IMG/VR virus record: IMGVR_UViG_3300028625_000001
Location: 1 to 64,000 of that record
DNA: 64,000 bases
Reading direction: 5' to 3' (one strand)
From: a virus
Below, piece after piece: positions 7,201-47,290 of this stretch. The translations under genes and the position numbers were made by a program. The notes under the pieces were generated by a model. That model ran no database searches, was not told the origin of the DNA, and worked only from the letters and a program-made list of their open reading frames with translations. The first letter of the stretch is position 1. Every line of letters begins with the position of its first letter.

Positions 7201-7434
7201 ATGAATCTAACCCTTTGGAACGCGTTGAACATAGAGACAGAACCTGACATATTAGTCAATCTTGAGGTGACTAGCTACAAAGGATCGGTCGGGTTTATGC
7301 CGGTGTTCGAAACGAAAGAGGCGATAGAAACTTATCTAAAGTCGGTTAATGCCCCAATCGACAATTATCATGAGGTGGCAGTCCCGACTGCCGCGTTTAT
7401 AAAAGAAGAGGAGGTTGATAAAACAAATGAGTAA
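7201..7434 (+). CDS. hypothetical protein (77 aa)
   Basis: ORF track entry. Its ATG directly abuts the mini-element right end. Confidence 0.5.
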   Translation: MNLTLWNALNIETEPDILVNLEVTSYKGSVGFMPVFETKEAIETYLKSVNAPIDNYHEVAVPTAAFIKEEEVDKTNE

Positions 7435-10142: not shown

Positions 10143-10525
10143 GGAAGTTAGAGATCAACATAACAGAAGACGGGCCAAAGGCGATTGCCTGTTTTCAAGT
10201 CTCTAATCCTCAACAACTAAAAATACTTTACTCTATCCTCATAGAGTTCACGGAGGCCGGGGTAATCAAAGAAGGTTTAACTCCTGAGCAAACAGAAGAA
10301 CTCGAAGTCATTCTTGCCCGGGACAAAGAAGTTGCGAAATACATGGCGGCGGAGATTGCTACAGTCCTGTCCGCGCAGGGACACATAGACCAAGTAAATA
10401 AATACTTCAGAGAAGTAATTGTCGATGGGAAGACAGAAGAGGAAGTTACCGAAGAGATGCTAAAAGAACTCAAAGCGAAAGCGGAAAAACTCACTGAGGA
10501 GGATACGGAATGTTTGGATGGGTAG
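10139..10525 (+). CDS. acidic hypothetical protein (128 aa)
   Basis: GTG after AAGGAGG. Confidence 0.55.
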   Translation: MRKLEINITEDGPKAIACFQVSNPQQLKILYSILIEFTEAGVIKEGLTPEQTEELEVILARDKEVAKYMAAEIATVLSAQGHIDQVNKYFREVIVDGKTEEEVTEEMLKELKAKAEKLTEEDTECLDG

Positions 10526-34141: not shown

Positions 34142-35572
34142 ATGCCTAAAGAAGTCATTCAACAGAAGCAATTAAGGCCGTTTGTGAACGGTCATAATAT
34201 TTATCGTGCTGAAGAGAGCACCGGCTCACCGAGAATAACTGCCGCCAAGTCCGAAGAGCTCGGCGCGCCGAATATCCTTGGAGTCGATGTTGAAGAGATA
34301 AACTCTGACATAACACTCAGGATAAGAGAACAAGGTAGCCTTTATCCCTATCTTGCCATCTTTAAGGATTATTCCTACGACCTCGAAGAGGCCGCGCTTC
34401 CTACCTCACTTTCTACTCTTGATATGGTCTCAAGTTTTGCCAACTTCGTGTTCCCCGTTATCAAGAAAGAAGAAATAGGCGACCCGAAACCGACGATCTG
34501 GAGAAACTATGTCATGGATAAGGCAGGAGTTACCAGCATCGGCTGGAATTTCAACGTCGATGGTCCGAGCACGATTAACATCTCTCTTCAGGGGTCAAGC
34601 TACAAGATATTCAAAGATTCAGCCATCCTCGTGGAACGTCACGCGGCGGTGACGGCCGGAGCTGTTACGCCTGAGCAAACTCCGACGAAGGTTATTAGGG
34701 TTATAGCAGAAGGCCCAGAGGAAATAGCCGGAGAAGATATAACGGATGTTTGTTCCGTTGGCACTGGAACTATAGCAGTTGGCACGTTTAACGGAGAAAC
34801 CCCGACTATGGTTACGGTGGTATATTCTTATGAGCAAACTACCGGAGATCCCGCATTGTTTTATGGGAGAGTTCTCTCCGAGACCGTAGAGGCCGAAGGT
34901 GTCGATTCGCTTACTGTTACTCACAATGTCACCAACATCATTGGAGTCAGGACAACTGCCGGAGTAATTGTTGCCGGGCCGTGGACTATCGACTCTAAAG
35001 ACCCCAAAACCATTACCGGGGGTACGGTGGTTGCAGAAACAAGTTATGTAGTCAACTATATAACTGCGGACGAACCGGCGGGACTCCTTAGACAGGCGAC
35101 GAAAGGCAAAATCAAGATATACATGGCGGAAAGTTACGCTACGAAAGGCGGAAGACTCAGAGGGGTTTCTTCTGTAGCAGCGAATTGGGGATTAAACTCC
35201 GATAGCAGACAGGAGCTTGGAAGTGAAGATCCATATCTCACGATAGCCAACCTCCCGGCGGAAATCACCGTTGATCTATCACTTGATGAGACTGAAGACA
35301 TAGACACTTTCCTTGCCAAGATAATCGATGTCGGAGAAGACGATCCTCTTATCGACCTCAAGAACATTAACCATGACATGAATCTCTACGTTGAGGTTAT
35401 AGGTCTTGATGAATCTGGCGATGAAGAAGTTAAGTTGGTCTACAAGTTCCCGAGGCTCATGCTTACATCTACAAGTTCAAGTCTTGCCCTCGGCGGGACG
35501 GTCAACAGACCTCTCAGCTTTACTTCCGACGATGTAATAATCACGACAAACACTGAATTAAGTGGTTTATAA
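34142..35572 (+). CDS. major tail protein candidate (476 aa)
   Basis: RBS AAGGGGGAG. Last structural ORF before a strong terminator. Thr/Val/Gly-rich and beta-like. Tube versus sheath is unresolved. Confidence 0.4.
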   Translation: MPKEVIQQKQLRPFVNGHNIYRAEESTGSPRITAAKSEELGAPNILGVDVEEINSDITLRIREQGSLYPYLAIFKDYSYDLEEAALPTSLSTLDMVSSFANFVFPVIKKEEIGDPKPTIWRNYVMDKAGVTSIGWNFNVDGPSTINISLQGSSYKIFKDSAILVERHAAVTAGAVTPEQTPTKVIRVIAEGPEEIAGEDITDVCSVGTGTIAVGTFNGETPTMVTVVYSYEQTTGDPALFYGRVLSETVEAEGVDSLTVTHNVTNIIGVRTTAGVIVAGPWTIDSKDPKTITGGTVVAETSYVVNYITADEPAGLLRQATKGKIKIYMAESYATKGGRLRGVSSVAANWGLNSDSRQELGSEDPYLTIANLPAEITVDLSLDETEDIDTFLAKIIDVGEDDPLIDLKNINHDMNLYVEVIGLDESGDEEVKLVYKFPRLMLTSTSSSLALGGTVNRPLSFTSDDVIITTNTELSGL

Positions 35573-35598
35573 CGTCTCACTTTCCTTCTTATCTTATA

Positions 35599-35632
35599 GG
35601 GCTATCTATCTCGAATAGGTAGCCCCTTTTTT
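35599..35632 (+). terminator. rho-independent terminator
   Basis: 10-bp stem GGGCTATCTA/TAGGTAGCCC followed by CTTTTTT. Confidence 0.85.
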
Positions 35633-35651
35633 CTAAAAAGGGGGTCTAAGC

Positions 35652-35903
35652 ATGATTGGACAAGACAAGATCCTTCACTTCATGTTTTCATTTATCATCG
35701 CTTTAGTCCTCGGTCTTTCAACCAGTTCTCCTATTCTTGGGTTTATGGGATCTCTGGGGATTGGTGGTGCGAAAGAGATTTATGATATGATCTCGCCCAC
35801 GGGCTTTGCTGAATTTGGCGACTTAATCGCCAATTCGATAGGGGCAGGAATTGCCACTATCTTATGCTATATAGCTCTAAAAGTCAATTCAGAAGCCAAA
35901 TAA
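35652..35903 (+). CDS. small membrane protein (83 aa, 2-3 TM segments)
   Basis: RBS AAAGGGGG. FMFSFIIALVLGL, ILGFMGSLGIGG, SIGAGIATILCYIAL. Confidence 0.55.
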   Translation: MIGQDKILHFMFSFIIALVLGLSTSSPILGFMGSLGIGGAKEIYDMISPTGFAEFGDLIANSIGAGIATILCYIALKVNSEAK

Positions 35904-35923
35904 AAAAATTCTTTTCATATCAC

Positions 35924-35952
35924 TTGACAAATAAAAAGTCATGTGTTATATT
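35924..35952 (+). promoter_or_regulatory. sigma70-type promoter (extended -10) driving the tmRNA/tRNA cluster
   Basis: TTGACA, 17 nt, TGtTATATT. 44 nt upstream of the tmRNA 5' end. Confidence 0.6.
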
Positions 35953-35995
35953 TAAGTTGTTGAAGGAAGACGGCTCATTGAAAAGTAAAAAAGTT

Positions 35996-36295
35996 GGGGA
36001 TGACAAGGTTTCGACAGGGCTGTACAAGTATTGACCTCATGCCGTCGAGAGACGTAAAACCTAAACTAAGAACTGACAACCCATTACTTGAAAGAGCGGC
36101 TGCTTAGTCGCTCCCCGTCCGAAAATTTCCTACTCTTATATCGGGTTACGGGTCATAAAGAGTAGGGCTACGAGCCCCAAGTTTGTGTAGAAGTTCTTGT
36201 TAAAAACTTCTATTCGCCTCCAAGCATAGGAAAGCATGTAAAGGGTCGGCATGGAACAGTTTTGGACCCGGGTTCGACTCCCGGCATCTCCACCA
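35996..36295 (+). ncRNA. ssrA: tmRNA (one-piece SsrA)
   Basis: 5' GGGGATGACAAGGTTTCGACAGGG and 3' GGACCCGGGTTCGACTCCCGGCATCTCCACCA form the tRNA-Ala-like domain. An internal frame ends ...D-N-P-L-L-E-R-A-A-A-TAG (stop 36105-36107). Confidence 0.85.
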
Positions 36296-36357
36296 GCTCT
36301 TTTGCCAGTGCACACCAGTAGAACGGAAAGACCTTTTTCATCAAACCTCCTTTCAAG

Positions 36358-36399
36358 CGGGGTCATGGTTTAGGCGGGGTTCGATTCCCCGCGGCCCCG
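36358..36399 (+). other. tRNA-like acceptor/T-arm minihelix (no D or anticodon arm)
   Basis: GGGGTCA pairs with CGGCCCC (6/7 including a G-U). CGGGG-TTCGATT-CCCCG is a perfect T-arm. Only 9 nt separate the 5' acceptor strand from the T-arm. Confidence 0.45.
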
Positions 36400-36443
36400 T
36401 CAGAGTTGGACAAACTCATTACTGGCATTTCGTTTGAAAGAAC

Positions 36444-36517
36444 TGAGAGATAGTGTAATGGAAACACACTTGATTTTGGCTCAAGTGATATAGGTTCGAA
36501 TCCTATTCTCTCAGCCA
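36444..36517 (+). tRNA. tRNA-Gln (UUG), CCA encoded
   Basis: Acceptor TGAGAGA/TCTCTCA. D-arm GTGT-AATGGAA-ACAC. Anticodon arm CTTGA-TTTTGGC-TCAAG. T-arm ATAGG-TTCGAAT-CCTAT. Ends G-CCA. Confidence 0.85.
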
Positions 36518-36568
36518 GTCTCATAAGAGACGACGGTGCTTGCAACTGAAACTCACCCCTAAAATAAA

Positions 36569-36647
36569 GCCGATGTCTTCTAAAAGGAAAGATAAGCTCC
36601 TGCCGTGAGAGGGGCAGAGAATGTGAGTTCGAATCTCACCATCGGCT
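36569..36647 (+). tRNA. tRNA-like gene with oversized anticodon region (identity unresolved; GCC at nominal 34-36)
   Basis: Perfect acceptor GCCGATG/CATCGGC. U8, A14, G18G19 and A21 present. T-arm GTGAG-TTCGAAT-CTCAC. The region between D- and T-arm is 6 nt too long, and the best hairpins have 8-nt loops. No CCA. Confidence 0.5.
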
Positions 36648-36787
36648 TTAGTTTTGTCGGCCACAAAACGTACAAACGTTTGTCTTGCAGAGCTACTTTT
36701 GTCGGGTCTTTTTACCCGGCAATTGTCGCTCGTCGGGGGGTGCCGGTCTTGGTGCCGACCCCCCGATATTTTTATGGAGGAAGTGAG

Positions 36788-37480
36788 ATGCAAAAATTGA
36801 TAGTTGCGTTCGAAGGAATCGATGGTGCGGGAAAAACAACACAGATCCGAATGGCAGAGAGTTATCTTCAAGATAAGGGAGTTCTCTGTAAAAGGTTCCG
36901 AGAGCCTGGCGGCACAAAACTTGGCGAAACCTTAAGGGATATTATACTTAATAATCCTGATATAAACATCTATTCTGAGACAGCCCTATTTGCCATAGCC
37001 CGCCGGGAATTGATAGAAAATGAAGTTTGCAAAGCTGTGCAAAATGGCGAAATTATTTTACTCGATCGATCTTTCTATTCTTCTTTAGCTTACCAAGGAG
37101 TGCGTTTTGGCTATGATGGTACGTATATAGTGCGAGAAATCAATTACAGCATCCTTGGTGGATTAAAAGAATATCTTCCTACTCATATATTCTTCTTTGA
37201 CCTTTCGCCAGACATAGCCTTGGCAAGGATTGATAAAAGGGGACAACAGGCGACTCGTTTTGAAACATCTTCTGATGGGGATTATCTCAGTAAAGTTGCC
37301 GAGAAATATAAACTGGTTTTGTCCAGTTCCTGGAGTCCTATTGCCTCTGAGACTTTCTTTTTCAATGCAAACCAACCCCCTTCGACTATTTTTTTGAAAG
37401 TGAAGACCGTATTAGATTACCTTATTTTTCTACGAGAAACCGAGTTAGACCGAATACTAAAAAAGGAGGAGTCGGTGTGA
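36788..37480 (+). CDS. tmk: thymidylate (dTMP) kinase
   Basis: FEGIDGAGKTTQ P-loop and REPGGT motif. ORF 36605..37480 trimmed to ATG 36788 after GGAGGAAG. Confidence 0.85.
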   Translation: MQKLIVAFEGIDGAGKTTQIRMAESYLQDKGVLCKRFREPGGTKLGETLRDIILNNPDINIYSETALFAIARRELIENEVCKAVQNGEIILLDRSFYSSLAYQGVRFGYDGTYIVREINYSILGGLKEYLPTHIFFFDLSPDIALARIDKRGQQATRFETSSDGDYLSKVAEKYKLVLSSSWSPIASETFFFNANQPPSTIFLKVKTVLDYLIFLRETELDRILKKEESV

Positions 37481-37872
37481 CAAGAAAGAAGTTAATTCTA
37501 GTCCTTTCAGCTGTCGTAGTAGCCTTCATTATCACGGGCTGTGTGCAGATTACAGGACTTCCGAACCTAAGCGGTGCCTGGACTCTTACGATGAATCCAT
37601 ATGCTCAAGACATAGAGTTCGACATGACAGTTATCCAGGAAGAAGGTTCTTTATCCTTTGAGGCTGAGGCTGATAACCCTGCAATAATCGTGTCTGGCGG
37701 GGCAGTAACCTACAGCCCGATAAACAGAGTAGGGATGACGGTAACAGTTAATGGACATCTATACTCTCTGTTTGGGGAAGTGAAAACAGACCTACTGACT
37801 GGCTTTTTGCGAGACGGAGTTTATGGTGACGTAGTAGGCCATTGGTCTGCTACCAAAGGAGTGATGGAATGA
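37477..37872 (+). CDS. lipoprotein (131 aa)
   Basis: Signal peptide LILVLSAVVVAFIITGC with lipobox I-T-G-C. GTG after AAGGAGGAG. Confidence 0.6.
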   Translation: MTRKKLILVLSAVVVAFIITGCVQITGLPNLSGAWTLTMNPYAQDIEFDMTVIQEEGSLSFEAEADNPAIIVSGGAVTYSPINRVGMTVTVNGHLYSLFGEVKTDLLTGFLRDGVYGDVVGHWSATKGVME

Positions 37873-38492
37873 GAAAACTTGTATGTATTCTTACTCTTAT
37901 CCTGGTGGTGACATTAATCTTCGGCATAAAAATAGCTCCCTTTGTAGATGCTGACAGTTTTGGGAAGCTTGACGTGGGGGCGGAGCTCTTCCTTACCGAA
38001 GATATAGTAGACCTGTCTGTGAAAGGAGTATATGATGTTCCAGCAAAAGACCTATATCTTGACGGATTGCTCACCCTTAAAAACGACATAGGTTTTCTCA
38101 AAGTCAAAGGGAGTTATGAAACGACCGGTGCTTCACCTACGATAGGATTTTTGGCAACAACCTCACCACTAAAGCTTGATGTTTTTAGTATCTATGGAAT
38201 AGCTGGAACTGGAGATTTTAGAAACAACGATTTTGGCAACAAGGTGCTTGGGGACCTCTTGGCAGACAATAAAGCGCTCTCTGTGTTGGGGGGCGCGAAA
38301 CTAGGACTCGGTTATACGTGGTTTGATCTATCTGCTAAGTTGGAGGCTGGGTACTTTATAAAAGCTGAAGAATACCAGGTGGCTGCTATTGTTGATGGCA
38401 AGTTATTTACTCTGATTGATGTAAAAGCTAAACTTGTACTACTTCCTGAATTTTCATGGTCTGTCTTTGCGCAAACGACTTTTGAGTTCTAA
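37869..38492 (+). CDS. secreted beta-rich protein, possible outer-membrane beta-barrel (207 aa)
   Basis: Trimmed to ATG 37869 (overlaps the upstream stop). Signal peptide MRKLVCILTLILVVTLIFG. Alternating-hydrophobic strands. C-terminal ...TTFEF (terminal Phe). Confidence 0.5.
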   Translation: MRKLVCILTLILVVTLIFGIKIAPFVDADSFGKLDVGAELFLTEDIVDLSVKGVYDVPAKDLYLDGLLTLKNDIGFLKVKGSYETTGASPTIGFLATTSPLKLDVFSIYGIAGTGDFRNNDFGNKVLGDLLADNKALSVLGGAKLGLGYTWFDLSAKLEAGYFIKAEEYQVAAIVDGKLFTLIDVKAKLVLLPEFSWSVFAQTTFEF

Positions 38493-38507
38493 TTATTGAT
38501 TGAAAGT

Positions 38508-38629
38508 TGCCCCGTGGCGGAATGGTAACGCCTAGCAAAACGGTAGGTCGATACGGTGGGGGTGTCCCCGCCGTCCAAACAGCTCGGAAGAGTCTGGATT
38601 CGTTGTGGGTTCAAGTCCCACCGGGGCCG
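38508..38629 (+). tRNA. tRNA-like gene with about 50-nt extra structured insert (122 nt)
   Basis: Acceptor (T)GCCCCG/CGGGGC(C). D-arm GGCG-GAATGGTAA-CGCC. T-arm GTGGG-TTCAAGT-CCCAC. Internal 8-bp hairpin at 38554-38573 and a GGAA-tetraloop hairpin at 38582-38593. No canonical anticodon arm found. No CCA. Confidence 0.45.
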
Positions 38630-38638
38630 TTATATATG

Positions 38639-38714
38639 GGTAGTTTAGGTTAAATTGGCAAACCGCTTTGGCTCATAAGCCAGAGAAGCGCGGGTTCAAA
38701 TCCCGTAACTGCCC
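38639..38714 (+). tRNA. tRNA (CAU; Met/Ile2-like) with an irregular 8-nt anticodon loop
   Basis: Acceptor GGTAGTT/AACTGCC. D-arm GGTT-AAATTGGCA-AACC. T-arm GCGGG-TTCAAAT-CCCGT. Anticodon arm CTTTGG-CTCATAAG-CCAGAG is 20 nt rather than 17. No CCA. Confidence 0.55.
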
Positions 38715-38720
38715 ACAGAC

Positions 38721-38894
38721 TTGACGGTGGCGGAACTGGTAGACGCTATCGTGGCCTTTTGGCAACGCACAACAAAAGTGCGACCTTGCAGTTATATGAC
38801 TGTATTTGGTGGGGCTCGATGAGAAAACATCGAAAACAAACTTGCTAGAAGATAGACCCCAATCTTCGTATAGGTTCGAATCCTGTCCGTCAAG
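38721..38894 (+). tRNA. class-II-like tRNA-like gene with about 90-100-nt insert (174 nt)
   Basis: Perfect acceptor TTGACGG/CCGTCAA. Leu-like D-arm GCG-GAACTGGTAGA-CGC. T-arm ATAGG-TTCGAAT-CCTGT. Variable-arm-like hairpin GAAGAT/ATCTTC (38848-38867). Several internal hairpins. No CCA. Confidence 0.45.
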
Positions 38895-38923
38895 TTAGTA
38901 ACTTTTCTCCTATCTAAGGAGGA

Positions 38924-40378
38924 TTGGTCTATTTTTACAAGGGGGAGGGAACTGAATTGATTGTAGAAGATTTAGTCGTTAAAGAATTATCCGTGGGCAA
39001 TTCATATTCAAAAGAAGGTGTCTTGGACAAAGACAGAGTTTTGACAGTTAGCAAGGTAAAAATCGGCGATAAGACTAGCAATGTTGAAACGATCGATGAG
39101 GAACGAAACGCTTATCTAAAGACCGTACACATTGGGACGCCGGAGTCTAGTATTGAGATCATTGACGAGGACGGCAACGTCCTTCAGAGGCTCCCGGTTG
39201 GCGCTCCGGCGATAGCCACCGCCGCTTCAACCGACTTAACAATCTCTGGTGGAGTATCTAACGGAGAACTAATCGTTATTGGCGACTCTATTATTGAAGT
39301 CAATGACACGACCGCCAGTGATGAAGGTTATGAGCTCCTTAATACTGCCGAAGGAACGAAGACACAGGCCAGCGGTGAAATTACCGTGAGTGCTGCCCCA
39401 GCACACCTCGATTATGTCCAGGTCGGGGAAGACATATACGTTATGGACCTTATTGGAGACGGAGTGAGCGCGGGGGCTATCCAGGTCGATCTTTCAGCTT
39501 TTTATGAAGCTTCAACTGCTACCCTCGCTTTTTCAGACGTAGTATCCGATGGGGAAGTTGTAGAAATCAACGGAGTTAGTTTTGAGTTTGATACCGACGG
39601 CGAGATCACCGAAGGAAATGTAAGAGTTTGGATTGGCGCAAACACCACTGCGGGCGCTGCAATTATTGCTCTCGCTTCAGTTATCAGAGGCAACACGGCT
39701 TGTGGCGTCAATGCAGTCGATGGTGACGGAGACACTTTGGTTGTTACAGCTAGAACATTAGGTACTGTCGGCGACGCCATTACTGTTTCTACCACCTGCG
39801 CGAACGCCTCCTGGGGCGTTGATGTAACCCATCTTGCAGATGGAGCCAGTGCAACTCCCGCAGAGACCATAGCGGCTATTGTGGCAGCTTCTGCCGGTGG
39901 AACGGAAGCCGTTACCATAACTGCCGGTGAAGGCGACGATGCAGGCAAATTACTTATTGCCGCAACTGCCGCTGGTGTTCTTGATGGATCTGCCGGTAAC
40001 TCATGTGTGCTTGCGGTTTCCGGGGCTGGATTTACAGCAAGCGCTTCTACTCTTGAGGGAGGCACCGACATGACGGCAGCCGAGGCTATAGCGGCCCTTG
40101 ACGGAGTAGAGCTCCCTGAAGCAACTCTTGAGGCTGGTGAAGGACTTGTGGCAGTTACAGCCAACGAAGCTGGAGTCGCGGGAAACGCGATTGAAGTCTC
40201 TACGACTATGGAAAATGCCGCCTTTGATGGTGAATACCTTGAGGGCGGCATTGACGGCGGGGAATATACGGAAGCCGATGCGAGAATTGCCAGATATGCC
40301 GACGGTTATCTATATATAGGCGAATGGGTAAACGGGGCAATGAAATGGTATGCCTGGCAGGGGACTGCCTTGAACTAA
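38924..40378 (+). CDS. Ala/Gly/Thr-rich protein (484 aa), possible virion fibre/decoration protein
   Basis: TTG start after AAGGAGGA. Long low-complexity A/G/T/V-rich core. The Ala-rich minus-strand ORF 39502-40251 is its shadow. Confidence 0.55.
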   Translation: MVYFYKGEGTELIVEDLVVKELSVGNSYSKEGVLDKDRVLTVSKVKIGDKTSNVETIDEERNAYLKTVHIGTPESSIEIIDEDGNVLQRLPVGAPAIATAASTDLTISGGVSNGELIVIGDSIIEVNDTTASDEGYELLNTAEGTKTQASGEITVSAAPAHLDYVQVGEDIYVMDLIGDGVSAGAIQVDLSAFYEASTATLAFSDVVSDGEVVEINGVSFEFDTDGEITEGNVRVWIGANTTAGAAIIALASVIRGNTACGVNAVDGDGDTLVVTARTLGTVGDAITVSTTCANASWGVDVTHLADGASATPAETIAAIVAASAGGTEAVTITAGEGDDAGKLLIAATAAGVLDGSAGNSCVLAVSGAGFTASASTLEGGTDMTAAEAIAALDGVELPEATLEAGEGLVAVTANEAGVAGNAIEVSTTMENAAFDGEYLEGGIDGGEYTEADARIARYADGYLYIGEWVNGAMKWYAWQGTALN

Positions 40379-40390
40379 AGAGCAACGAGT

Positions 40391-40460
40391 AAGCGGGAAA
40401 GCTCATTGGAGAGCGCCCTAACAGATGGGGAGGTTGTGGGTCCGAATCCCGCCTCGCTTA
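40391..40460 (+). tRNA. tRNA-like gene with a short (15-nt) anticodon arm, loop AACAGAT (CAG with A33)
   Basis: Acceptor AAGCGGG/CCTCGCTT, extendable to 9 bp. D-arm GCTC-ATTGGA-GAGC. T-arm GTGGG-TCCGAAT-CCCGC (TCC rather than TTC). No CCA. Confidence 0.4.
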
Positions 40461-40483
40461 CTAGATTAGTTAGGGGGGAGAAC

Positions 40484-40609
40484 ATGATAAAGCGATTGAC
40501 TAATTGGTTCAAACGTCAGTGGAAGAAAGATATTGCGATAAACAGACAGCATACAGAAAGCATATATAACGCGTCGGACATTTTCGGAATCCCAGGAATA
40601 AGAGGTTAG
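40484..40609 (+). CDS. small basic protein (41 aa)
   Basis: ORF 40406..40609 trimmed to ATG 40484 after AGGGGGGAG. The upstream part overlaps the tRNA-like gene. Confidence 0.35.
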   Translation: MIKRLTNWFKRQWKKDIAINRQHTESIYNASDIFGIPGIRG

Positions 40610-40613
40610 GAGT

Positions 40614-40657
40614 AGGAGCGTAACTCAGTTGGTTAGAGTGCTGATCTGATACGTCAG
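40614..40657 (+). pseudogene. 5' two-thirds of tRNA-Ile (GAU), truncated at the omega-RNA scaffold
   Basis: AGGAGCG-TA-ACTC-AGTTGGTTA-GAGT-G-CTGAT-CTGATAC-GTCAG is a canonical acceptor 5' strand, D-arm and anticodon arm. No variable loop, T-arm or 3' acceptor strand follows. Confidence 0.7.
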
Positions 40658-40897
40658 TCAACGACCCACGGCTAAAGCCGGGAGCTTGTAGCTCTTGTTG
40701 ACCAGCTTGAGTGTTTTGAGCACTACGTTACGGGTGAATACATAGGCACTCCGGGGTGACGCCACCAGCCCCGGACACTGCGGTGAATGATTAAACAGGT
40801 TGAGGGTCTAAACCAGTGTTGTTCACATTAAACCACTTGATAACATTGGCGAGGTGGACTTTACCGGCGTATGCCGAGAATTGAGAGGTAACTATCT
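40640..40897 (+). ncRNA. IscB omega-RNA (putative 16-nt guide 40640-40655 plus about 240-nt scaffold)
   Basis: Structured leader directly upstream of iscB. Homologous to 6862-7137. Contains conserved hairpins such as CCACGGCT-AA-AGCCGGG and AGTG-N7-CACT. Confidence 0.7.
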
Positions 40898-42207
40898 ATG
40901 CAACGTGTATTTGTAGTTGACAAAAACAGAGAGCCACTGATGCCGTGTCATCCAGCGCGGGCAAGGGAATTACTAAAAAATAGACGGGCAAAAGTGTTAC
41001 GCCGCTACCCGTTCACCATCATCCTGCTGGACCGTGAGGGTGGTGATGTACAACCAGTTGCATTGAAGATTGACCCGGGTAGCAAAACTACAGGGTTGGC
41101 GCTGGTCGCTGATGGCCAGCGTGGGAAACGCGTGGTATGGGCAGGCGAACTTAACCACCGTGGAGAACAGATAAAAGCAAGTATGCTGTCAAGAAAACAG
41201 TTGCGGCGTGCACGCAGATCACGTAAGACTCGCTACCGTCAGCCGCGTTTCGACAATCGCCGCCGGGCCGAGGGGTGGATACCGCCGTCGCTGCGAAGTC
41301 GCGTGGACAACGTGTTGACATGGACAGAACGATTGCGTAGGTTCACACCTATCTGCGCCGTGAGTATGGAGTTGGTGAAATTTGACACACAGGCTATGCA
41401 AAACCCGGAAATCAGTGGTATTGAGTATAAACAAGGCGAATTGATGGGATATGAAGTGCGTGAGTATTTGCTTGAAAAGTTTGGTCGAAGGTGTGCTTAT
41501 TGCGGAGCGACTGGCGCGCCACTAGAAATCGAACATATTATTCCAAAGTCTCGTGGTGGGTCAAATAGGGTAAGCAACCTAACACTGTCTTGTACCGTAT
41601 GTAATCAGCATAAAGGCAATCAGACGGCAACAGAGTTCGGACATCCAACAATTCAGGACAAAGCGAAGCAACCATTGAAAGATGCGGCGGTTATGAATAC
41701 AACACGTTGGACACTTTATCGCAGCTTAAAACAATTAGGCTTACCAATGGAAGTCGGTACTGGTGCACGGACTAAATACAATCGAGTACGACAGAATTAT
41801 CAGAAAGAACACTGGATTGACGCAGCCTGCGTGGGTGTAAGCGGAGAAAAAGTGTATATATCTTCTGGCACAATACCACTGGTTATTAAGGCTACCGGTC
41901 GCCAGTCACGTATCATGTGTCGCCCGGATAAGTACGGTTTCCCGCGCACGAAAGCTAAACAAGGCCGTGTTCACTACGGTTTCCAGACGGGCGACATCGT
42001 GCTGGCAACAATTCCTGAAGGTAAACATACCGGGGTACATATTGGACGTGTGGCAGTTCGTAACAGACCATCGTTTCGACTGAACGATTTTGATGTACAT
42101 CCAAAATACTTAAAAGTTTTGCATCATTCAGACGGCTACAGTTATCAGTGAAAGGAGGGAGCGCCATTCCTCACCGCGCTAAAGCACGGTGTCCCCTGGC
42201 GCAATTT
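40656..42207 (+). mobile_element. IS200/IS605-superfamily OMEGA element (omega-RNA + iscB + right end), no tnpA
   Basis: The boundaries are where similarity to the 6862-7197 copy starts and stops. The right-end hairpin CACCGCGC-TAAA-GCACGGTG covaries with CCCCACAGC-TAAA-GCAGGGG in the mini copy. Confidence 0.6.
40898..42151 (+). CDS. iscB: IscB RNA-guided nuclease (PLMP, split RuvC, bridge helix, HNH, TID)
   Basis: REPLMPCHPARAR (PLMP). KIDPGSKTTGLAL (RuvC-I). RRARRSRKTRYRQPRFDNRRR (bridge helix). MELVKFD (RuvC-II). CAYCG...EIEHIIPKSRGGSNRVSNLTLSCTVCNQHKGN (HNH). EHWIDAACVG (RuvC-III). 417 aa. Confidence 0.85.
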   Translation: MQRVFVVDKNREPLMPCHPARARELLKNRRAKVLRRYPFTIILLDREGGDVQPVALKIDPGSKTTGLALVADGQRGKRVVWAGELNHRGEQIKASMLSRKQLRRARRSRKTRYRQPRFDNRRRAEGWIPPSLRSRVDNVLTWTERLRRFTPICAVSMELVKFDTQAMQNPEISGIEYKQGELMGYEVREYLLEKFGRRCAYCGATGAPLEIEHIIPKSRGGSNRVSNLTLSCTVCNQHKGNQTATEFGHPTIQDKAKQPLKDAAVMNTTRWTLYRSLKQLGLPMEVGTGARTKYNRVRQNYQKEHWIDAACVGVSGEKVYISSGTIPLVIKATGRQSRIMCRPDKYGFPRTKAKQGRVHYGFQTGDIVLATIPEGKHTGVHIGRVAVRNRPSFRLNDFDVHPKYLKVLHHSDGYSYQ

Positions 42208-42209
42208 CT

Positions 42210-42476
42210 ATGGGAATAAAAGCAAAGACGTTGTGGGTGCACGTTAGGTCTTCAGGTTCATATCAGGCATTGTACATTAACGGAATTAAAGAAATCGAAG
42301 GCGAACAAATAGACATTGTTGAAGCTTTTGACCTCTTGGCCGAAAGAACGAATAACGAAGCCTATATCCTCGATTATACATACGAAGACATAGACGAGGA
42401 AGAAGATCCTTTTGATAATGCAGTAGATCGTGACTTCGATTTCCCGGAATCGCTTGACAAAAAGGACGTTATATAG
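42210..42476 (+). CDS. hypothetical protein (88 aa), paralog of 6575-6814
   Basis: ORF 42189..42476 trimmed to ATG 42210 by alignment with paralog A. The ATG abuts the element right end. Confidence 0.5.
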   Translation: MGIKAKTLWVHVRSSGSYQALYINGIKEIEGEQIDIVEAFDLLAERTNNEAYILDYTYEDIDEEEDPFDNAVDRDFDFPESLDKKDVI

Positions 42477-42560
42477 CAGATAGGGTAGTTTATTCTGCAA
42501 GATGGTCAAAATAAAGAACAAAACTAGAGTTTTGCAGAATAATGCAGAAAAGAAAAACGC

Positions 42561-42689
42561 GGGCGCATGGCAAAATTGGCAGATGCTATCGTGACCGAAA
42601 GGTTAGGAGTCTCGTGAGTGAACACGTGAAAAAGCTCGCTAGAATGGGGATCTTGACCATTCGTACAGGTTCGAATCCTGTCGCGCCCA
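42561..42689 (+). tRNA. class-II-like tRNA-like gene with about 50-nt insert (129 nt), paralog of 38721-38894
   Basis: Acceptor GGGCGC(A)/(C)GCGCCC. D-arm GCA-AAATTGGCAGA-TGC. T-arm ACAGG-TTCGAAT-CCTGT. Shares GCTATCGTG...GCTAGAA...TTCGT with 38721. GAAA-tetraloop hairpin at 42590-42607. No CCA. Confidence 0.45.
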
Positions 42690-42699
42690 TTAGACCCCG

Positions 42700-43000
42700 G
42701 CAGGGTCATATTAAACCAGAGAGCAGTTAAGTCTTTCTGTACCAATAGCCGGGTGCAGTCTCTGTTGTAATCCGTTGGCCCGTTTCAGGTACAGAGACGA
42801 AGCAGAAGCGGGCATAAAATTAACCTCCATATCGGACCTTCCGATGGACGCATCGAGAACGGCTAACCGGTATGGCAGAATTGATCCCCACGTCCGCCCT
42901 GCATGTCGACGGGCAGTGATAGGTCAACGGGCGTGGTAGTTAATCCGCGGGACAGTACGCCGAGCCGCTGAAAGGGAAAGTCCTTATGTGACCGGAGTAC
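42700..43000 (+). ncRNA. candidate structured RNA (about 300 nt, unclassified; some group-I-intron-like boxes)
   Basis: ORF-free and more GC-rich than its flanks. Many perfect helices: CCCGGC/GCCGGG, GTCTCTGT/ACAGAGAC, ATCGGA/TCCGAT, GGCGT/ACGCC. Motifs GAAGCGGGCAT, TAATCCGCGGG and AGGGAAAGTCC. Confidence 0.35.
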
Positions 43001-43004
43001 GAGC

Positions 43005-43075
43005 AGAGGGGTAGCTTAATAGGTAAAGCTGATCTCATCCATGGATGTATGCAGGTTCGAATCCTGCTCCCTTTG
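43005..43075 (+). tRNA. tRNA-like gene, loop CATCCAT (UCC with A33), short variable region
   Basis: Acceptor AGAGGGG/TCCCTTT (two G-U pairs). D-arm GCTT-AATAGGTA-AAGC. T-arm GCAGG-TTCGAAT-CCTGC. 4-bp anticodon stem. No CCA. An alternative perfect 5' strand AAAGGGA lies at 42971. Confidence 0.45.
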
Positions 43076-43089
43076 CTAGAAGGAGTTGG

Positions 43090-43620
43090 TTGGTTGTGTT
43101 TTTTAGAAAAACGTTGAAGGAAATAATTTCCAAGATTACCAAGGGGAATTTAGTAATATGCAACAAGGTCAAGTATGTAGAAGAGGCCGTCAACGACGAA
43201 CGCCAATTGATATATGGTCTTAGCGGCGAGATAAAAGCGCTTCGAGATGCGATAGTAGAGAACCCTTTTGCTAATCCTCAAAAGGGGAATTTATCTATCC
43301 AACAAGAAGTGTATATAGAACACAGCGACGGGGCTAGGGAAAAGACGGACGAACTCCGCCGCTTAGTCCTTGGAGCAACTTATAAACATTTCAAAGGAGA
43401 CAACTATAGAGTCCTTGGACTTGCAAAACACCACGAAAGCGGCGAAATACTGGTAATTTACCAGATGGTATATAACTACCTAAACACTTATTTGTCGATA
43501 GCTACCGTCGGCGAAATCTATGCCCGGCCAATAGATGACTTTCTTTGTCTGGTAGAGCGCGACGGGGAAGTTAAACAAAGATTCCAGCTTATAAGCGAGC
43601 TGAGAAAGGAGGAGACATGA
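43090..43620 (+). CDS. DUF1653-domain protein
   Basis: ATYKHFKGDNYRVLGLAKHHESGEILVIYQ...YARPIDDF resembles the DUF1653 core. Start is TTG 43090 or GTG 43096, after AAGGAG. Confidence 0.55.
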   Translation: MVVFFRKTLKEIISKITKGNLVICNKVKYVEEAVNDERQLIYGLSGEIKALRDAIVENPFANPQKGNLSIQQEVYIEHSDGAREKTDELRRLVLGATYKHFKGDNYRVLGLAKHHESGEILVIYQMVYNYLNTYLSIATVGEIYARPIDDFLCLVERDGEVKQRFQLISELRKEET

Positions 43621-43889
43621 ACGGCGCTAAGGAATATGCAGAGAAATATTTTATAGCAATCAGTGGATATGAAACAGATGTTCGTTACGCCTTAAACATT
43701 GCTTTCTTTAGGAGACTGGCGGTAAGAATGGGCGCCGCCGATGATCCCGATGCGGACGCGCTTCTTAAAAAAGGCGATGAGTTCTATAAAGAAAACAGAG
43801 ATGAAATATTAAAGGCATTACGGGCGAATCCATCTTGGACATCAGAAGAAGAAGCATATATAGAAAAAGAAATAACGGGAGGGAATTGA
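43617..43889 (+). CDS. hypothetical protein (90 aa)
   Basis: ATGA overlap with the upstream stop. Confidence 0.55.
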   Translation: MNGAKEYAEKYFIAISGYETDVRYALNIAFFRRLAVRMGAADDPDADALLKKGDEFYKENRDEILKALRANPSWTSEEEAYIEKEITGGN

Positions 43890-43891
43890 GA

Positions 43892-44245
43892 TTGACTAAA
43901 CGTTTTTGCGATCATTGCGGTGAAGCGATCCCTGACAAAGATAGTTTTTATACCGTTGAACTTAACGGCAAGCAGTATGATTTTTGTTCTATAGCCTGTC
44001 ATGAGGCGTTCGTCGCCGCACATAAAGATGAGATCGAAAAGCATCAGCTTGAAAGAAGAAACAAAGAGCTTGACAAAAGACATAAGGAACTTGAGGCAAG
44101 GATTCATAAGTTAGAAGAGCGAATCTCTTCTCTTGAAATGATGGAAATGTGGAAGGAATTTTTCCCTGTGCAATTCCCTGACTTGCAAGTTGCCTCGGAT
44201 ACTAATGAGAGCGCCAGACTCCCCTTTGTTACTTATACCCTTTAG
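43892..44245 (+). CDS. zinc-binding (CxxC...CxxxC) coiled-coil protein (117 aa)
   Basis: ORF 43835..44245 trimmed to TTG 43892 after GGGAGGG. FCDHCGE...DFCSIACHEAF. Confidence 0.5.
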   Translation: MTKRFCDHCGEAIPDKDSFYTVELNGKQYDFCSIACHEAFVAAHKDEIEKHQLERRNKELDKRHKELEARIHKLEERISSLEMMEMWKEFFPVQFPDLQVASDTNESARLPFVTYTL

Positions 44246-44255
44246 CAAAATACAG

Positions 44256-44329
44256 GGCGAGGTAGAGTAGCGGCCACTCGAAGGTCTCATAAGCCTTATA
44301 GGAGGGTTCAACTCCCTCCCTCGCTCCCA
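44256..44329 (+). tRNA. tRNA-Met (CAU), CCA encoded
   Basis: Acceptor GGCGAGG/CCTCGCT. D-arm GAGT-AGCGGCC-ACTC. Anticodon arm AAGGT-CTCATAA-GCCTT. T-arm GAGGG-TTCAACT-CCCTC. Ends C-CCA. Confidence 0.85.
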
Positions 44330-44382
44330 GGATAGGCATCTTACATACCCGAAAGTAACTTACTCAAGAGTATCTTGTTTGC

Positions 44383-44468
44383 GGCGGGGTAGTCTAATTG
44401 GCAAGGCAGCGGTCTTGAAAACCGTCGGGCGAAAGCCTTTGAGAGTTCGACTCTCTCTCCCGCCGCCA
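44383..44468 (+). tRNA. tRNA-Ser (UGA), class II, CCA encoded
   Basis: Acceptor GGCGGGG/TCCCGCC. D-arm GTCT-AATTGGCA-AGGC. Anticodon arm GCGGT-CTTGAAA-ACCGT. Variable arm GGGC-GAAA-GCCT. T-arm GAGAG-TTCGACT-CTCTC. Ends G-CCA. Confidence 0.85.
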
Positions 44469-44490
44469 GAAAAGATTAGGAGATGAATAG

Positions 44491-44952
44491 GTGAACCCCT
44501 TTTTTAAGTATCTGAAATACCTGCTAAAACATCGTTGGTACGTATTTGTCGAATGTTGTAAGTTAGGAATTCCTTGGCGAGGTTTAACACATGACATAAG
44601 CAAGTTCCTGCCTGATGAATGGATTCCTTATATGCGACATTTCTACATGTCATACATAACCAGACCGGAATGGAAGACGCAATATAACATTGCATGGCTT
44701 AAACATCAAAACCGAAACAGACACCATTGGCAATATTGGCTACTCTGGAAAGATAGCGGCAAGGTCTTACCTCAAGAAATGCCAATGAGATACCGAAAAG
44801 AGATGTTGGCAGATTGGCGTGGCGCCGGACGCGCCATTACCGGGCGAGACGACACAAGAGAGTTCTACCTAAAGAATAAAGACAATATAACTCTCGCACC
44901 AGAAACTAAACGATGGGTAGAGGCAAAATTAGGGATAGATCGATCGAATTAA
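44491..44952 (+). CDS. hypothetical protein (153 aa, His/Trp-rich)
   Basis: GTG after TTAGGAG. LTHDISKF...HQNRNRHHWQYW. No family assigned. Confidence 0.5.
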   Translation: MNPFFKYLKYLLKHRWYVFVECCKLGIPWRGLTHDISKFLPDEWIPYMRHFYMSYITRPEWKTQYNIAWLKHQNRNRHHWQYWLLWKDSGKVLPQEMPMRYRKEMLADWRGAGRAITGRDDTREFYLKNKDNITLAPETKRWVEAKLGIDRSN

Positions 44953-44962
44953 AGGAGGGATA

Positions 44963-45262
44963 ATGCCGTGGCTTAACTTCTATTTTTGGAGGGAACCCAT
45001 GAGCAGAAGCTATACAAAAGCAGTCAGGATTCATCGAGGAAAACCTAAAACGGCCAGAAAGAACAACGCAAGAGTTTGTAGACGGAAAGTAAAACAGTTT
45101 ATCAAAGGCAGGAAGTTGGATAAGGCTGCAAGCTACGCTGGGAAAGACCACTATTCAACATTCTACGAGGTTTGGGAATTAAAGGCTGTCTGGTTTGTAG
45201 AAGAACTCTATAACTGGATATATAAAGGGAAAGAAAGTCTAAAAAAGCTTAGAAGTAAATAG
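44963..45262 (+). CDS. basic small protein (99 aa)
   Basis: ATG after AAAGGAGGG. Confidence 0.5.
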   Translation: MPWLNFYFWREPMSRSYTKAVRIHRGKPKTARKNNARVCRRKVKQFIKGRKLDKAASYAGKDHYSTFYEVWELKAVWFVEELYNWIYKGKESLKKLRSK

Positions 45263-45354
45263 TTAGGTTCGTCGAAGAGGGGTAAGTTTCAATGAGAGCA
45301 ATCATGTTCTCAATGCGACTTACCCTCATTTTTTATCAACAGGAGGCTTTTAAA

Positions 45355-45813
45355 ATGGAAGTCTTTTATAGCAACAAGTTATTGACAATCGCCTTATCCA
45401 TAGTCTTTCTTCTATTGTGTGGAAACTTTTCATTATCAACCTACATGCTCAACGCTCCGCCTCTAGTTATTAGAGGGGATCTCTCTGGCGCGAAAGTCGC
45501 CTATGGCTCCGCTCCGGCAGCGTTTCAGTCTCTCTTTACTATTCATCTTAATGAGAAAGTCGGAAATTATACAACCATCAGGCATGAGTATCAACACTAT
45601 ATACAAAGTGCCCTATTAACTCCATTTGGTGCGGCGATAGGCTATCAATGGCAGCGATGCATATTGGGCAAAAGCTACAATGAGAACTGGTTTGAACTAG
45701 ACGCAGACCGGGCAAGAGAAGACGGCCTGATGTTTGATGTTTTTGTCTGGAACACTAAAGAACTTGTCACCATAATACCAGGACAATACTACTTCGATCT
45801 AGGGGTGGAATAA
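45355..45813 (+). CDS. membrane-anchored HExxH protein (putative metallopeptidase-like), paralog 1
   Basis: Trimmed to ATG 45355 after ACAGGAGG. TM helix LLTIALSIVFLLLCG. IRHEYQHYIQSALLTPFG contains HEXXH. Confidence 0.5.
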   Translation: MEVFYSNKLLTIALSIVFLLLCGNFSLSTYMLNAPPLVIRGDLSGAKVAYGSAPAAFQSLFTIHLNEKVGNYTTIRHEYQHYIQSALLTPFGAAIGYQWQRCILGKSYNENWFELDADRAREDGLMFDVFVWNTKELVTIIPGQYYFDLGVE

Positions 45814-46235
45814 TGGAAAATCTATACACAAACCCGTGGGTAACTATCCCCCTCACGATACTATACGCTTGCCTTGCGTTGAATTTTGCCGGGGCAATTT
45901 TTGCGTTGAACGCCGACCCGATATTGATCCCAATAGAAACCAAAAACCCTTCATTCACAGGAATAACGATAGCGCCTTTCATAATACTTAAAAACGAATG
46001 TTTGACATACACAGATTTAAGACGCGAATACCAGCATTATATGCAGCAATCGTTGTTGACGCCTTTAGGCTTCTTAGGATTCTATATTGGAGAATACTTA
46101 CTTGAGGGTAGTTTTGACAATGTATCTTTTGAACAAGAAGCCGTCAAGAAGGAAAACGATTCTCTTGAGTTTGAGGTGTTCAACATAAAGACTTTTAAGA
46201 AGATGAAAGTATATTCAGACATGGGGGGGGATTGA
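45813..46235 (+). CDS. membrane protein, degenerate paralog of 45355-45813 (REYQH instead of HEYQH)
   Basis: LRREYQHYMQQSLLTPLG aligns with the HEXXH region of the upstream gene. N-terminal TM segments. Confidence 0.5.
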   Translation: MENLYTNPWVTIPLTILYACLALNFAGAIFALNADPILIPIETKNPSFTGITIAPFIILKNECLTYTDLRREYQHYMQQSLLTPLGFLGFYIGEYLLEGSFDNVSFEQEAVKKENDSLEFEVFNIKTFKKMKVYSDMGGD

Positions 46236-46979
46236 ATGAGCGAAAGAGACGACCAGGTAGCGACCCTGGGGATTGAAATAAAAGAAAACGAGGCTGTCAA
46301 AGCTTTACATCCCGAAGATGACGAAGGAATAACCGCCGTCGAGGCGGCGGAGGCTTTTGACACAATCGAGCATGGCTATAAACTCTGGGAGTATGCACCC
46401 GGCGTTAAGTTCAGACTCTATTTCCCCTCCGCGGAAGTTGCGGGAGAAGCCAACTTCGTCTATTCAAAGATGTATCTTACATACATAAAGGGCGGCGCAC
46501 TCCCCTTACAAAAGCTTATGGCTTTAATGGACGCTCAGGGGTTATGGACTAAAGAAGACGAAAAGAAGTTTATGGAAGCAGAAAAAGAGCTTCGAGAACA
46601 ATCCTTGCGCTATTTGAATCTCAGAAAAAAGGTTGTAGAAAACCCTGAAGAAAGACTCGCGGGGGAAGTTATCAATGCCGATGCCGCATATAAAGAAGCA
46701 TATGAGGAATATATAAAACTTAAGGAAACGAAAGAAAACATCGTCAGCCTTTCAGCGGATTCCCTGGCGGACACTCAAAGAAGAGCTTATTACGTATATA
46801 GACTGACTAGACTAGAGGACGGAAGTCCTAAATGGGCTTCTTTCGATGACTTACTAAAAGAGACAGAGATGGTCATAGACAAGATATGGCAACAAATACT
46901 AGCCTTCTATGTCAAGTATGGTGATCGTTTTTTAGGAAGCTTGCCCGTTCAAGACACTGGAAAGACAGACAAAAAGTAG
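46236..46979 (+). CDS. hypothetical protein (247 aa; in the position of a tail assembly chaperone)
   Basis: ATG after GGGGGGGATTGA. Upstream of the tape measure gene. Function is positional only. Confidence 0.45.
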   Translation: MSERDDQVATLGIEIKENEAVKALHPEDDEGITAVEAAEAFDTIEHGYKLWEYAPGVKFRLYFPSAEVAGEANFVYSKMYLTYIKGGALPLQKLMALMDAQGLWTKEDEKKFMEAEKELREQSLRYLNLRKKVVENPEERLAGEVINADAAYKEAYEEYIKLKETKENIVSLSADSLADTQRRAYYVYRLTRLEDGSPKWASFDDLLKETEMVIDKIWQQILAFYVKYGDRFLGSLPVQDTGKTDKK

Positions 46980-47005
46980 GGGAGGAGTTAAATCTCCCCG
47001 TTTTT
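46979..47005 (+). terminator. terminator-like hairpin
   Basis: GGGGAG-N9-CTCCCC followed by GTTTTT. Confidence 0.55.
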
Positions 47006-47038
47006 CGACTTCCGTCATATGCTTCACAAATAAACCCT

Positions 47039-47278
47039 TTGCTTTCCAAATTCATTAGCTATGTTGTTTTTTACAACAACATCTTGTCCGAACCCGTCAA
47101 CAGACCGCCGGACTCAATTATCAAGATCGATGAAAAAGTGGACGAATGGGTCAAGAAGCGCTACGACGATCTTGAGTCTCAGAGAATGGATTATTACCTC
47201 AAGTACATGAGGAATATCAGACCCATAGCTGGTCCTGATGATGACGGGTTCGTCTTTATAGGCGACGGGAACGATTAG
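47039..47278 (+). CDS. hypothetical protein (79 aa; start uncertain)
   Basis: ORF track entry with TTG start. Immediately upstream of the tape measure gene. Confidence 0.4.
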   Translation: MLSKFISYVVFYNNILSEPVNRPPDSIIKIDEKVDEWVKKRYDDLESQRMDYYLKYMRNIRPIAGPDDDGFVFIGDGND

Positions 47279-47290
47279 GGGGGGATAAAC

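Follow-up and report, generated by a model that had tools for sequence, protein, structure and literature searches.

A stretch of 64,000 nucleotides from a virus (IMG/VR record IMGVR_UViG_3300028625_000001, positions 1 to 64,000; hereafter the window) carries an iscB gene and, 5' of it, an omega-RNA of the kind that guides OMEGA nucleases. We judge it probable that positions 40657-42209 form a complete, non-autonomous IS200/IS605 OMEGA element whose lineage is actively moving among related and unrelated phages; most likely, RNA-guided cleavage of element-free alleles promotes the retention and homing of what would be a TnpA-dependent transposon. An earlier note, made from the sequence alone, had described the locus as a complete IscB/omega-RNA locus inside a phage tRNA island, an account that was borne out here, although it overlooked the truncated tRNA-Ile from which the guide derives, a second, open reading frame (ORF)-less copy at 6863-7200 and the precedents in other phages.

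The evidence that carries this interpretation comes from related phages. The 113-kb contig ENA k141_173841 (L006) has the same gene order as the window and aligns with it in four blocks (Table 1), and these two backbones, 95-98% identical, each carry an IscB element where the other has none. The L006 element (1557 bp, GTCAACG...GCAATTTCA) is flanked by the bases of window positions 45339-45360, into which it is inserted scarlessly and without target duplication; conversely, this stretch of the window matches the left flank of the L006 element, which is the L006 guide, at 16/16 positions and continues with ATGGAA, such that the L006 guide finds in the window a perfect target with a canonical transposon/target-adjacent motif (TAM). 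A third site is occupied in contig L181, in which positions 1557-4498, directly 3' of the left end (LE) of its element, correspond to window 45813-48756 (95.8%); the L181 contig begins at the element, and its left flank is cut off by the contig end. The three alternative insertion sites (40657, 45339-45360 and 45797-45818) lie within ~5 kb. Elements that are 84-95% identical occur in related phages at seven or more other scarless sites, always adjoining ATGG, and close homologues (84-97% amino acid identity) are found in other phage-like contigs at different sites and with different 16-nt left flanks. At four of these sites the junction separates the ATG of the following phage gene from a Shine-Dalgarno sequence (8-11-nt spacer). 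In contig L179 (2699-4290; ENA k141_1170615) the element interrupts a phage tRNA-Glu(UUC) at its D-loop, which also contains the ATGG TAM; excision in silico restores the tRNA-Glu, which is then called by ARAGORN. At the nucleotide level, iscB of L006, L018 and L179 is 98.6-98.8% identical despite unrelated backbones, and a copy 95% identical to the window element occurs in the unrelated contig L177. Since position varies among near-identical backbones and the junctions are scarless in the manner of IS200/IS605, we regard these elements as an active non-autonomous transposon.

Scarless insertion without target duplication is an IS200/IS605 signature, and the limits of the window element were therefore set likewise, by empty-site comparison, at 40657-42209 (1553 bp); the six bases that follow, 42210-42215, are homologous to the ATGGTA or ATGGGA that starts the same 88-aa gene in empty alleles. 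The earlier note had placed the limits at 40614-42207, of which the first is the start of a truncated tRNA-Ile rather than of the omega-RNA, and the second falls 2 nt before the element end. Next to LE stands ATGG in 7/7 IscB-type copies and ATGA in 3/3 ORF-less mini copies. The features expected of IS200/IS605 elements are present, namely precise insertion, no target-site duplication, an adjoining motif and subterminal hairpins at both ends (CGGCTAAAGCCG on the side of the right end, RE, and CACCGCGCTAAAGCACGGTG on the LE side). A nested hairpin is predicted in LE (GCGCC...CACCG-loop-CGGTG...GGCGC), and LE is 94-96% conserved among all copies that bear IscB, the mini copies having a compensated version of it. 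These ends agree with what is described for other iscB elements, where the HEARO side is bounded by RE, TnpA and IscB share the TAM, and the TAM of GstIscB is TTCAT, the reverse complement of ATGAA (Meers et al. preprint). No match to Y1_Tnp (PF01797), the TnpA family, was found in the 75 window ORFs with 90 aa or more, as the earlier note had stated for its locus, and the element is for this reason taken as non-autonomous, which does not exclude membership of IS200/IS605; only ~1.5% of iscB genes lie near tnpA (Meers et al. preprint).

Table 1. Features of the window, aligned blocks of contig L006 and left flanks of related elements
Feature	Position in window	Strand	Details
5' fragment of phage tRNA-Ile(GAT)	40614-40656	+	tRNA positions 1-42; G43 is base 40657
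Predicted omega-RNA guide	40641-40656	+	16 nt, CTGATCTGATACGTCA; directly 5' of the first scaffold base
Omega-RNA scaffold (Rfam HEARO RF02033)	40657-40864	+	134 bits, E=2e-28, model 1-211 of 211
Linker	40865-40897	+	small hairpin CGGCGTATGCCG and iscB Shine-Dalgarno GAGAGG; conserved in IscB-bearing copies
iscB gene	40898-42151	+	417 aa; PLMP, RuvC-I, bridge helix, RuvC-II, HNH, RuvC-III, beta-rich C-terminal domain
Transposon left end (LE, TAM-proximal)	42152-42209	+	GAAAGGAGG, then nested hairpin, ending ...CAATTTCT
Transposon/target-adjacent motif	42210-42215	+	ATGGGA; also start codon of downstream 88-aa gene (42210-42476)
Empty site for L006 element	45339-45360	+	ACAGGAGGCTTTTAAA/ATGGAA; between Shine-Dalgarno and ATG of a 152-aa gene starting at 45355
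Empty counterpart of third site	45797-45818	+	L181-type element adjoins this ATGGAA start codon
ORF-less omega-RNA mini-element	6863-7200	+	HEARO 143 bits; then ATGAAT, start of a 77-aa ORF (site span 6847-7206)
Mini-element guide	6847-6862	+	AACGATGAGACTTCAA
Mini-element omega-RNA scaffold	6863-7071	+	two hairpins 3', then LE to 7200
Block aligned with L006	38195-40658		L006 1-2461, 94.6%
Block aligned with L006 (the two IscB elements)	40656-42213		L006 5756-7317, 84.4%
Block aligned with L006	42210-45354		L006 2613-5756, 97.8%
Block aligned with L006	45354-47500		L006 7313-9457, 97.8%
Left flank, L006/L007/L008			ACAGGAGGCTTT(T/C)AAA
Left flank, L012-L017			GAGGGGATGAATAATA
Left flank, L018/L019			AAGGAGATAGTTAACA
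Left flank, L177			GAATAAGGATTAATAT
Left flank, L179/L180			TGGGGATATCTTCTAA

Domain order, catalytic residues and the upstream omega-RNA together place the 417-aa ORF in IscB. All motifs that had been read from the sequence are there in the order claimed (PLMP, residues 13-16; IDPGS, 58-62; an Arg-rich stretch, ~99-125; SMELVKFD, 156-163; CAYC, 199-202; EIEHIIP, 210-216; CTVCNQHKGN, 232-241; EHWIDAAC, 304-311), and the profile and structure searches that had been proposed as a check point the same way. NCBIfam NF040563 (guided_IscB, the 'RNA-guided endonuclease IscB' equivalog) matches residues 4-313 with 458 bits (E=1.2e-137; cutoff 175 bits), Pfam returns RRXRR (3e-74) and HNH, and a PDB sequence search with the ORF matches only IscB, IsrB and small Cas9 chains. 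The AlphaFold2 model (mean pLDDT 74) retrieves solved IscB-omega-RNA-DNA complexes as its top Foldseek matches (8csz_D, E=6e-22; 9liq_A; 9k30_A), in alignments of ~500 columns overall. Residues 317-417 lie outside every sequence-profile and PDB sequence match; in the predicted structure this C-terminal part is beta-rich, with pLDDT 85-94 over ~360-410, and may be the WED/TAM-interacting domain. The catalytic residues, which had been thought to look intact, do so on alignment: D59, E158, H213, H305 and D308 correspond to D61, E193, H247, H340 and D343 of OgeuIscB (7XHT), the RuvC and HNH catalytic residues according to Kato et al. (PMC9640706), and all five are invariant in 33 homologues (63-90% identity alignment). 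Pairwise dN/dS of iscB is 0.05-0.11 at dS 0.9-1.3, indicating strong purifying selection. RNA-guided, TAM-dependent double-strand DNA cleavage is a predicted activity of this protein. The earlier suggestion of a domesticated or still-guided nuclease, as opposed to a decaying insertion sequence, thus divides: still-guided agrees with the dN/dS values, whereas domesticated does not agree with polymorphic position and scarless junctions. A domesticated or repurposed derivative, such as the TnpB-derived TldR-type regulators, was likewise rejected, given the intact active sites, the polymorphic position and the intact transposon ends.

The leader that had been proposed to encode the omega-RNA is matched by the Rfam covariance model over its full length, well above the HEARO gathering score of 83 bits, on the same strand as iscB and stopping 33 nt 5' of its ATG. 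In an alignment of 10 copies of the element family, 24/59 consensus pairs show compensatory changes, indicating that the fold of the omega-RNA has been kept, and the scaffold begins sharply at GTCAAC, preceded by an unconserved guide segment. The guide length of 16 nt is borrowed from work on OgeuIscB (PMC9640706), and the RNA 5' end given here is predicted.

The guide of the window copy has an unusual source. Immediately 5' of the element lies a fragment of a tRNA-Ile(GAT) that keeps the acceptor 5' strand, the D-arm and the anticodon stem-loop, its 3' part being gone; it is near-identical to the 5' part of the intact tRNA-Ile(GAT) that ARAGORN calls in L006 (2416-2493), L187, L188 and L189. 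Because the element abuts this fragment, which ends at G43, the predicted 16-nt guide is the anticodon stem-loop. The four other alleles each have the whole tRNA-Ile, a ~115-nt spacer, a Shine-Dalgarno sequence and the ATGGTA or ATGGGA of the 88-aa gene; the window is without tRNA positions 44-76 and the spacer (~150 nt in total), its element sits between G43 and ATGG, its 88-aa gene has lost its own Shine-Dalgarno sequence, and homology to the L006 backbone reaches 40658 and then ends. The acceptor-strand motif and T-arm pattern of the missing 3' half were not found in the window, and virtual excision of the element does not restore a tRNA. The comparison indicates that the guide was created from a tRNA gene by genome rearrangement, most likely by canonical insertion and a ~150-nt deletion, and two histories fit. 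In the first, the element was inserted between the Shine-Dalgarno sequence and the ATGG of the 88-aa gene, the usual kind of site, and the guide side was then deleted across a microhomology of 3-4 nt, (C)AGT, that the tRNA shares with the inferred ancestral junction ...GCA/GTCAAC; in the second, it was inserted in the tRNA at GTCA/GTGG, and the TAM side was then deleted up to the next ATGG. An intermediate allele was found for neither history, the search among homologues of the 88-aa gene returning intact (empty) alleles only. An IStron or intron was considered and rejected: no intron family matched at E<=1 in 35000-46000, and the tRNA 3' half is absent, such that splicing could not restore the tRNA.

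The workings of IscB and TnpB are said to have been established by Altae-Tran in 2021. Taking each step from that mechanism (also Meers 2023), the element would be transcribed by read-through from upstream phage genes or the tRNA, the transcript would be cut back to the scaffold with ~16 nt of flank, and the trimmed RNA would be bound by IscB. The complex would then cut DNA in which the guide sequence is followed by a TAM, that is, the element-free allele, whether in a donor joint left behind when TnpA excises the element or in a co-infecting relative whose site is empty, and recombinational repair would copy the element in (restorative or non-restorative homing). New sites would be reached by way of a Y1 TnpA acting in trans, from the host or from another element; as no TnpA was seen, that enzyme would have to be encoded elsewhere. 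For the window copy, the donor joint after excision would be CTGATCTGATACGTCA/ATGGGA, a canonical target (in full, GATACGTCA/ATGGGAAT; junction of the excised circle, ...GCAATTTCT/GTCAACGACC), and with intact ends and a canonical donor joint the retention function would be intact whatever the origin of the flank. Judged from the alignments, the guide of each phage matches the element-free site of the other, which would be the arrangement needed for an RNA-guided gene drive between phages, and the comparative picture fits non-restorative homing between co-infecting phages; homing into co-infecting phages has so far been named only as a theoretical possibility (PMC13565253, a 2026 review). Of the roles that the earlier note had offered, element homing and inter-phage competition are those favoured by the comparison.

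A more specific claim would be that IscB elements are RNA-guided gene drives and exclusion weapons between co-infecting phages, and that fusion to half a tRNA has reprogrammed the guide, aiming IscB at the anticodon stem-loop of a conserved phage tRNA-Ile gene. In a mixed infection, the tRNA-Ile gene of a relative, or of another phage that has this stem-loop, would be cut, resulting in its exclusion or its conversion to the IscB allele, much as T4 SegB drives inheritance of the T4 tRNA region (PMC13565253). The pairs on which this would operate are the L006 guide with window 45339-45360, perfect and canonical, and the window guide with the intact tRNA-Ile of L006, L187 or L188, with a near-canonical TAM. 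The window guide matches 16/16 in all four related intact alleles and in ~10 IMG/VR viral tRNA-Ile genes that share the identical stem-loop; neither of the two guides in the window has a second match with <=2 mismatches in the window itself. Recombinational copying would be supported by the homology of the flanks on either side of the element (94.6% and 97.8%), and GTGG may by analogy be acceptable in place of ATGG, because OgeuIscB does not contact the first TAM base and reads positions 3-4 as purines (R-R) (PMC9640706). However, A occupies TAM position 1 in 10/10 natural sites, whereas the tRNA targets have G, and the fusion is seen in one lineage while four keep the tRNA intact, with no sign of a sweep in a thin sampling. 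We therefore treat retargeting to tRNA-Ile as a tentative and rather doubtful extension of the homing interpretation.

The third role that had been suggested, attack on the host genome, finds no such footing. Here the guide would send IscB to the host tRNA-Ile(GAU) genes, usually in rRNA operons, and the chromosome would be shredded; what speaks for it is the general notion that bacteria carry tRNA-Ile(GAU) in several copies. A scan of 185,579 bacterial species genomes (596 Gb) with the 16-mer guide gave at least 120 matches, a number about that expected by chance, and none of the 120 matches listed lies in a tRNA context. Among the matches listed, an anticodon stem CUGAU/GUCAG with a U-G pair occurs in viral tRNA genes only. 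We consider host attack highly improbable.

We caution that several points weigh against an active, homing element in the window. The support is comparative. No TnpA was found among the 75 window ORFs, in a search that covered the window. The guide itself forms a hairpin of 5 bp that may make targeting less efficient, and the window phage and the L006-type phage come from different samples, co-infection being assumed. In intact tRNA-Ile genes the guide match is followed by GTGGGC (L006, L187) or GTGAGC (L188, L189), not ATGG, which makes homing of the window copy into these alleles uncertain. Finally, the predicted ancestral junction TTTAGCA/GTCAACGACCC was not recovered in JGI metagenomes, which gave two unrelated chance matches. 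These points raise the alternative of a stranded passenger, intact in sequence but no longer mobilised or useful, which would persist only owing to its recent acquisition and would carry a tRNA-derived guide without a biological target; the missing TnpA in the window, the non-canonical junction on the guide side and the downstream gene that lost its own Shine-Dalgarno sequence would all suit it. We consider this unlikely because iscB has been under strong purifying selection over dS ~1, the fold of the omega-RNA is kept through compensatory changes, both ends are intact with a post-excision donor joint that would be a canonical target, and the family has undergone multiple recent transpositions; a complete element of a lineage that is still moving remains our preferred interpretation.

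The window holds a second, ORF-less element on the same strand (Table 1), with no IscB ORF 3' of its omega-RNA, which is more divergent than that of the IscB copy. Its LE is homologous to 42147-42205, with compensated stems (GGCGG/CCGCC versus GCGCC/GGCGC), and sister mini copies are found in L013 (~9866-10210) and L016 (~5790-6130). With both ends and an omega-RNA but no protein gene, its sequence matches the definition of a PATE (Meers et al.); ORF-less PATEs are known, as is an orientation bias of the elements (Meers et al. preprint). The ORF just 5' of the mini-element (6575-6811) and the 88-aa gene at 42210-42476 are paralogues (31% identity, E=7e-9), which reflects either recombination between element-adjacent regions or coincidence.

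At every locus the IscB elements are co-oriented with the flanking genes, and a promoter and terminator scan of 40300-42600 returned nothing above shuffle expectation. It was also observed that the elements part downstream phage genes from their own Shine-Dalgarno sequence (window 42149-42212, L006 7253-7316, L018 7211-7273) and that LE places GAAAGGAGG just 5' of the nested hairpin, which ends 7-9 nt before the ATG. On this model LE may act as a hairpin-bridged ribosome-binding site for the downstream gene; the LE folds do not differ significantly from shuffles (z -1.3 to -1.7; mini copy +0.5), and GGAGG is itself paired in the window fold.

The surroundings are those of a tailed phage, with portal, large terminase, virion, tail, tail fibre and 3538-aa tape-measure proteins. 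The region 35996-44468 contains a tmRNA and several tRNA genes, in keeping with the phage tRNA island described previously. JGI and Logan assemblies made independently contain the same sequence with its tRNA/omega-RNA junction (11 contigs read, 5 of them shown); this recurrence of the junction rules out a chimera or other artefact of assembly. Among GenBank phages, Megablast with 38500-44500 found no match, and this phage therefore has no close sequenced relative there; an IMG/VR search for related loci returned nothing with the 484-aa neighbour and a single locus, 67% identical, with IscB.

Several further RNA genes of the region deserve mention in their own right. The phage tmRNA at 35996-36295 (Rfam 109 bits; ARAGORN tag peptide VKPKLRTDNPLLERAAA) heads the tRNA cluster; the L179 contig also has a tRNA cluster. 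For the tRNA at 38638-38716 (L006 443-521; Rfam 41 bits), ARAGORN predicts an anticodon loop of 8 nt and an anticodon of four bases, which reads 'cata' in the window but 'caca' in L006; this tRNA may be quadruplet-decoding or otherwise unusual. A tRNA-like sequence at 40392-40459 (L006 2197-2264) combines good acceptor and T arms with an odd anticodon region that reads CCCTAACAGATGGGG versus CCCTGATGAACGGGG between the related phages; its Rfam score of 28.3 bits is just below the cutoff (36.7 in L006), and ARAGORN makes no call. At 42561-42689 a 129-nt tRNA-like gene matches the Rfam tRNA model across the whole stretch (29.3 bits), modelled by ARAGORN in intron mode as a tRNA-Gly(acc) whose anticodon loop has gained 38 nt by insertion; the ~315 nt that follow it (42690-43004, ORF-poor and GC-rich) have no Rfam match.

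Compared with the IscB-omega-RNA OMEGA elements already described (OgeuIscB, KraIscB and GstIscB; RF02033), the window element shares the domain order and catalytic residues, an omega-RNA 5' of the ORF with a flank-derived 5' guide, an RE that bounds the omega-RNA and a TAM that abuts LE. It also shares scarless insertion without target duplication, co-orientation with the upstream gene, ORF-less PATE derivatives and the lack of tnpA, as at ~98% of iscB loci (Meers et al. preprint). Unlike those elements, it resides in and moves among tailed-phage genomes; its IscB is compact at 417 aa, compared with 496 aa for OgeuIscB, and ~17-23% identical to solved IscBs in Foldseek alignments. Its TAM, as predicted from natural sites, is ATGG (ATGA in the mini copies), and the guide of this copy would be a tRNA anticodon stem-loop made by rearrangement.

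Carriage of IscB by phages is rare but not new. A tblastn search found IscB homologues in 22/50,697 GenBank phage records, and comparable loci with IscB and HEARO exist in Ralstonia phages (Adzire, Simangalove, Heva and others), Microcoleus phage My-WqHQDG and the uncultured huge phage LR756508; these homologues are full length and 49-52% identical, and HEARO scores above threshold directly upstream of iscB in Adzire (120 bits) and My-WqHQDG (129 bits). Such loci are thus already in GenBank isolates, unrecognised: the records annotate the gene as 'HNH endonuclease' or 'hypothetical', and neither a population comparison of filled and empty sites nor a tRNA fusion is known there. The PHROG family phrog_2214, annotated 'HNH endonuclease', has a match at 1.6e-136 among the 75 window ORFs; judging by E-value and annotation, the matching ORF is probably IscB. 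In the isolated cyanophage Nodularia phage vB_NspS-kac68v162 (L186; MK605246, 62529-66788) the genes on either side of an IscB homologue bear the annotations 'IS607 family transposase' and 'transposase', and no HEARO match at that locus reaches the gathering score.

The closest functional parallels are the T4 enzymes SegB, which homes in the tRNA region, and SegF and SegG, which act in marker exclusion: as we propose for IscB, the element-free allele of a co-infecting relative is cut and then repaired from the element-bearing genome, and SegB likewise lies in a phage tRNA gene cluster (PMC13565253). Unlike the Seg enzymes, the window system would recognise its target through a 16-nt RNA guide and a TAM rather than protein-DNA contacts, and it is a transposon able to reach new sites; the architecture of its IscB is not that of a GIY-YIG or HNH homing-endonuclease family. 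TnpB systems in bacteria and plasmids resemble the mechanism proposed here in that inheritance is biased towards the insertion sequence when its empty allele is cut under RNA guidance; for TnpB this is reported from experiments in bacteria and plasmids, whereas here the evidence is comparative and concerns an IscB nuclease on a phage replicon.

IscB with its omega-RNA is the accepted ancestor type of Cas9, and its natural role has so far been shown only for bacterial chromosomes and, for TnpB, plasmids. The present locus contributes evidence of movement within phage genomes at the population level, insertion between Shine-Dalgarno sequence and ATG and in tRNA genes, reciprocal pairs of guide and empty site, and a guide made from a tRNA gene by rearrangement. 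Repeatedly, the elements have come to lie precisely between a phage gene's ribosome-binding site and its start codon, or within a phage tRNA gene, and the nuclease can acquire a new guide through a simple deletion. Two 95-98% identical backbones with filled and empty alleles at three sites within ~5 kb, known guides, a simple inferred TAM and an ORF-less companion omega-RNA element together offer a natural test system, and the IscB, being compact at 417 aa, with its active sites intact and a TAM of the ATGG type, is a candidate scaffold for genome editing.

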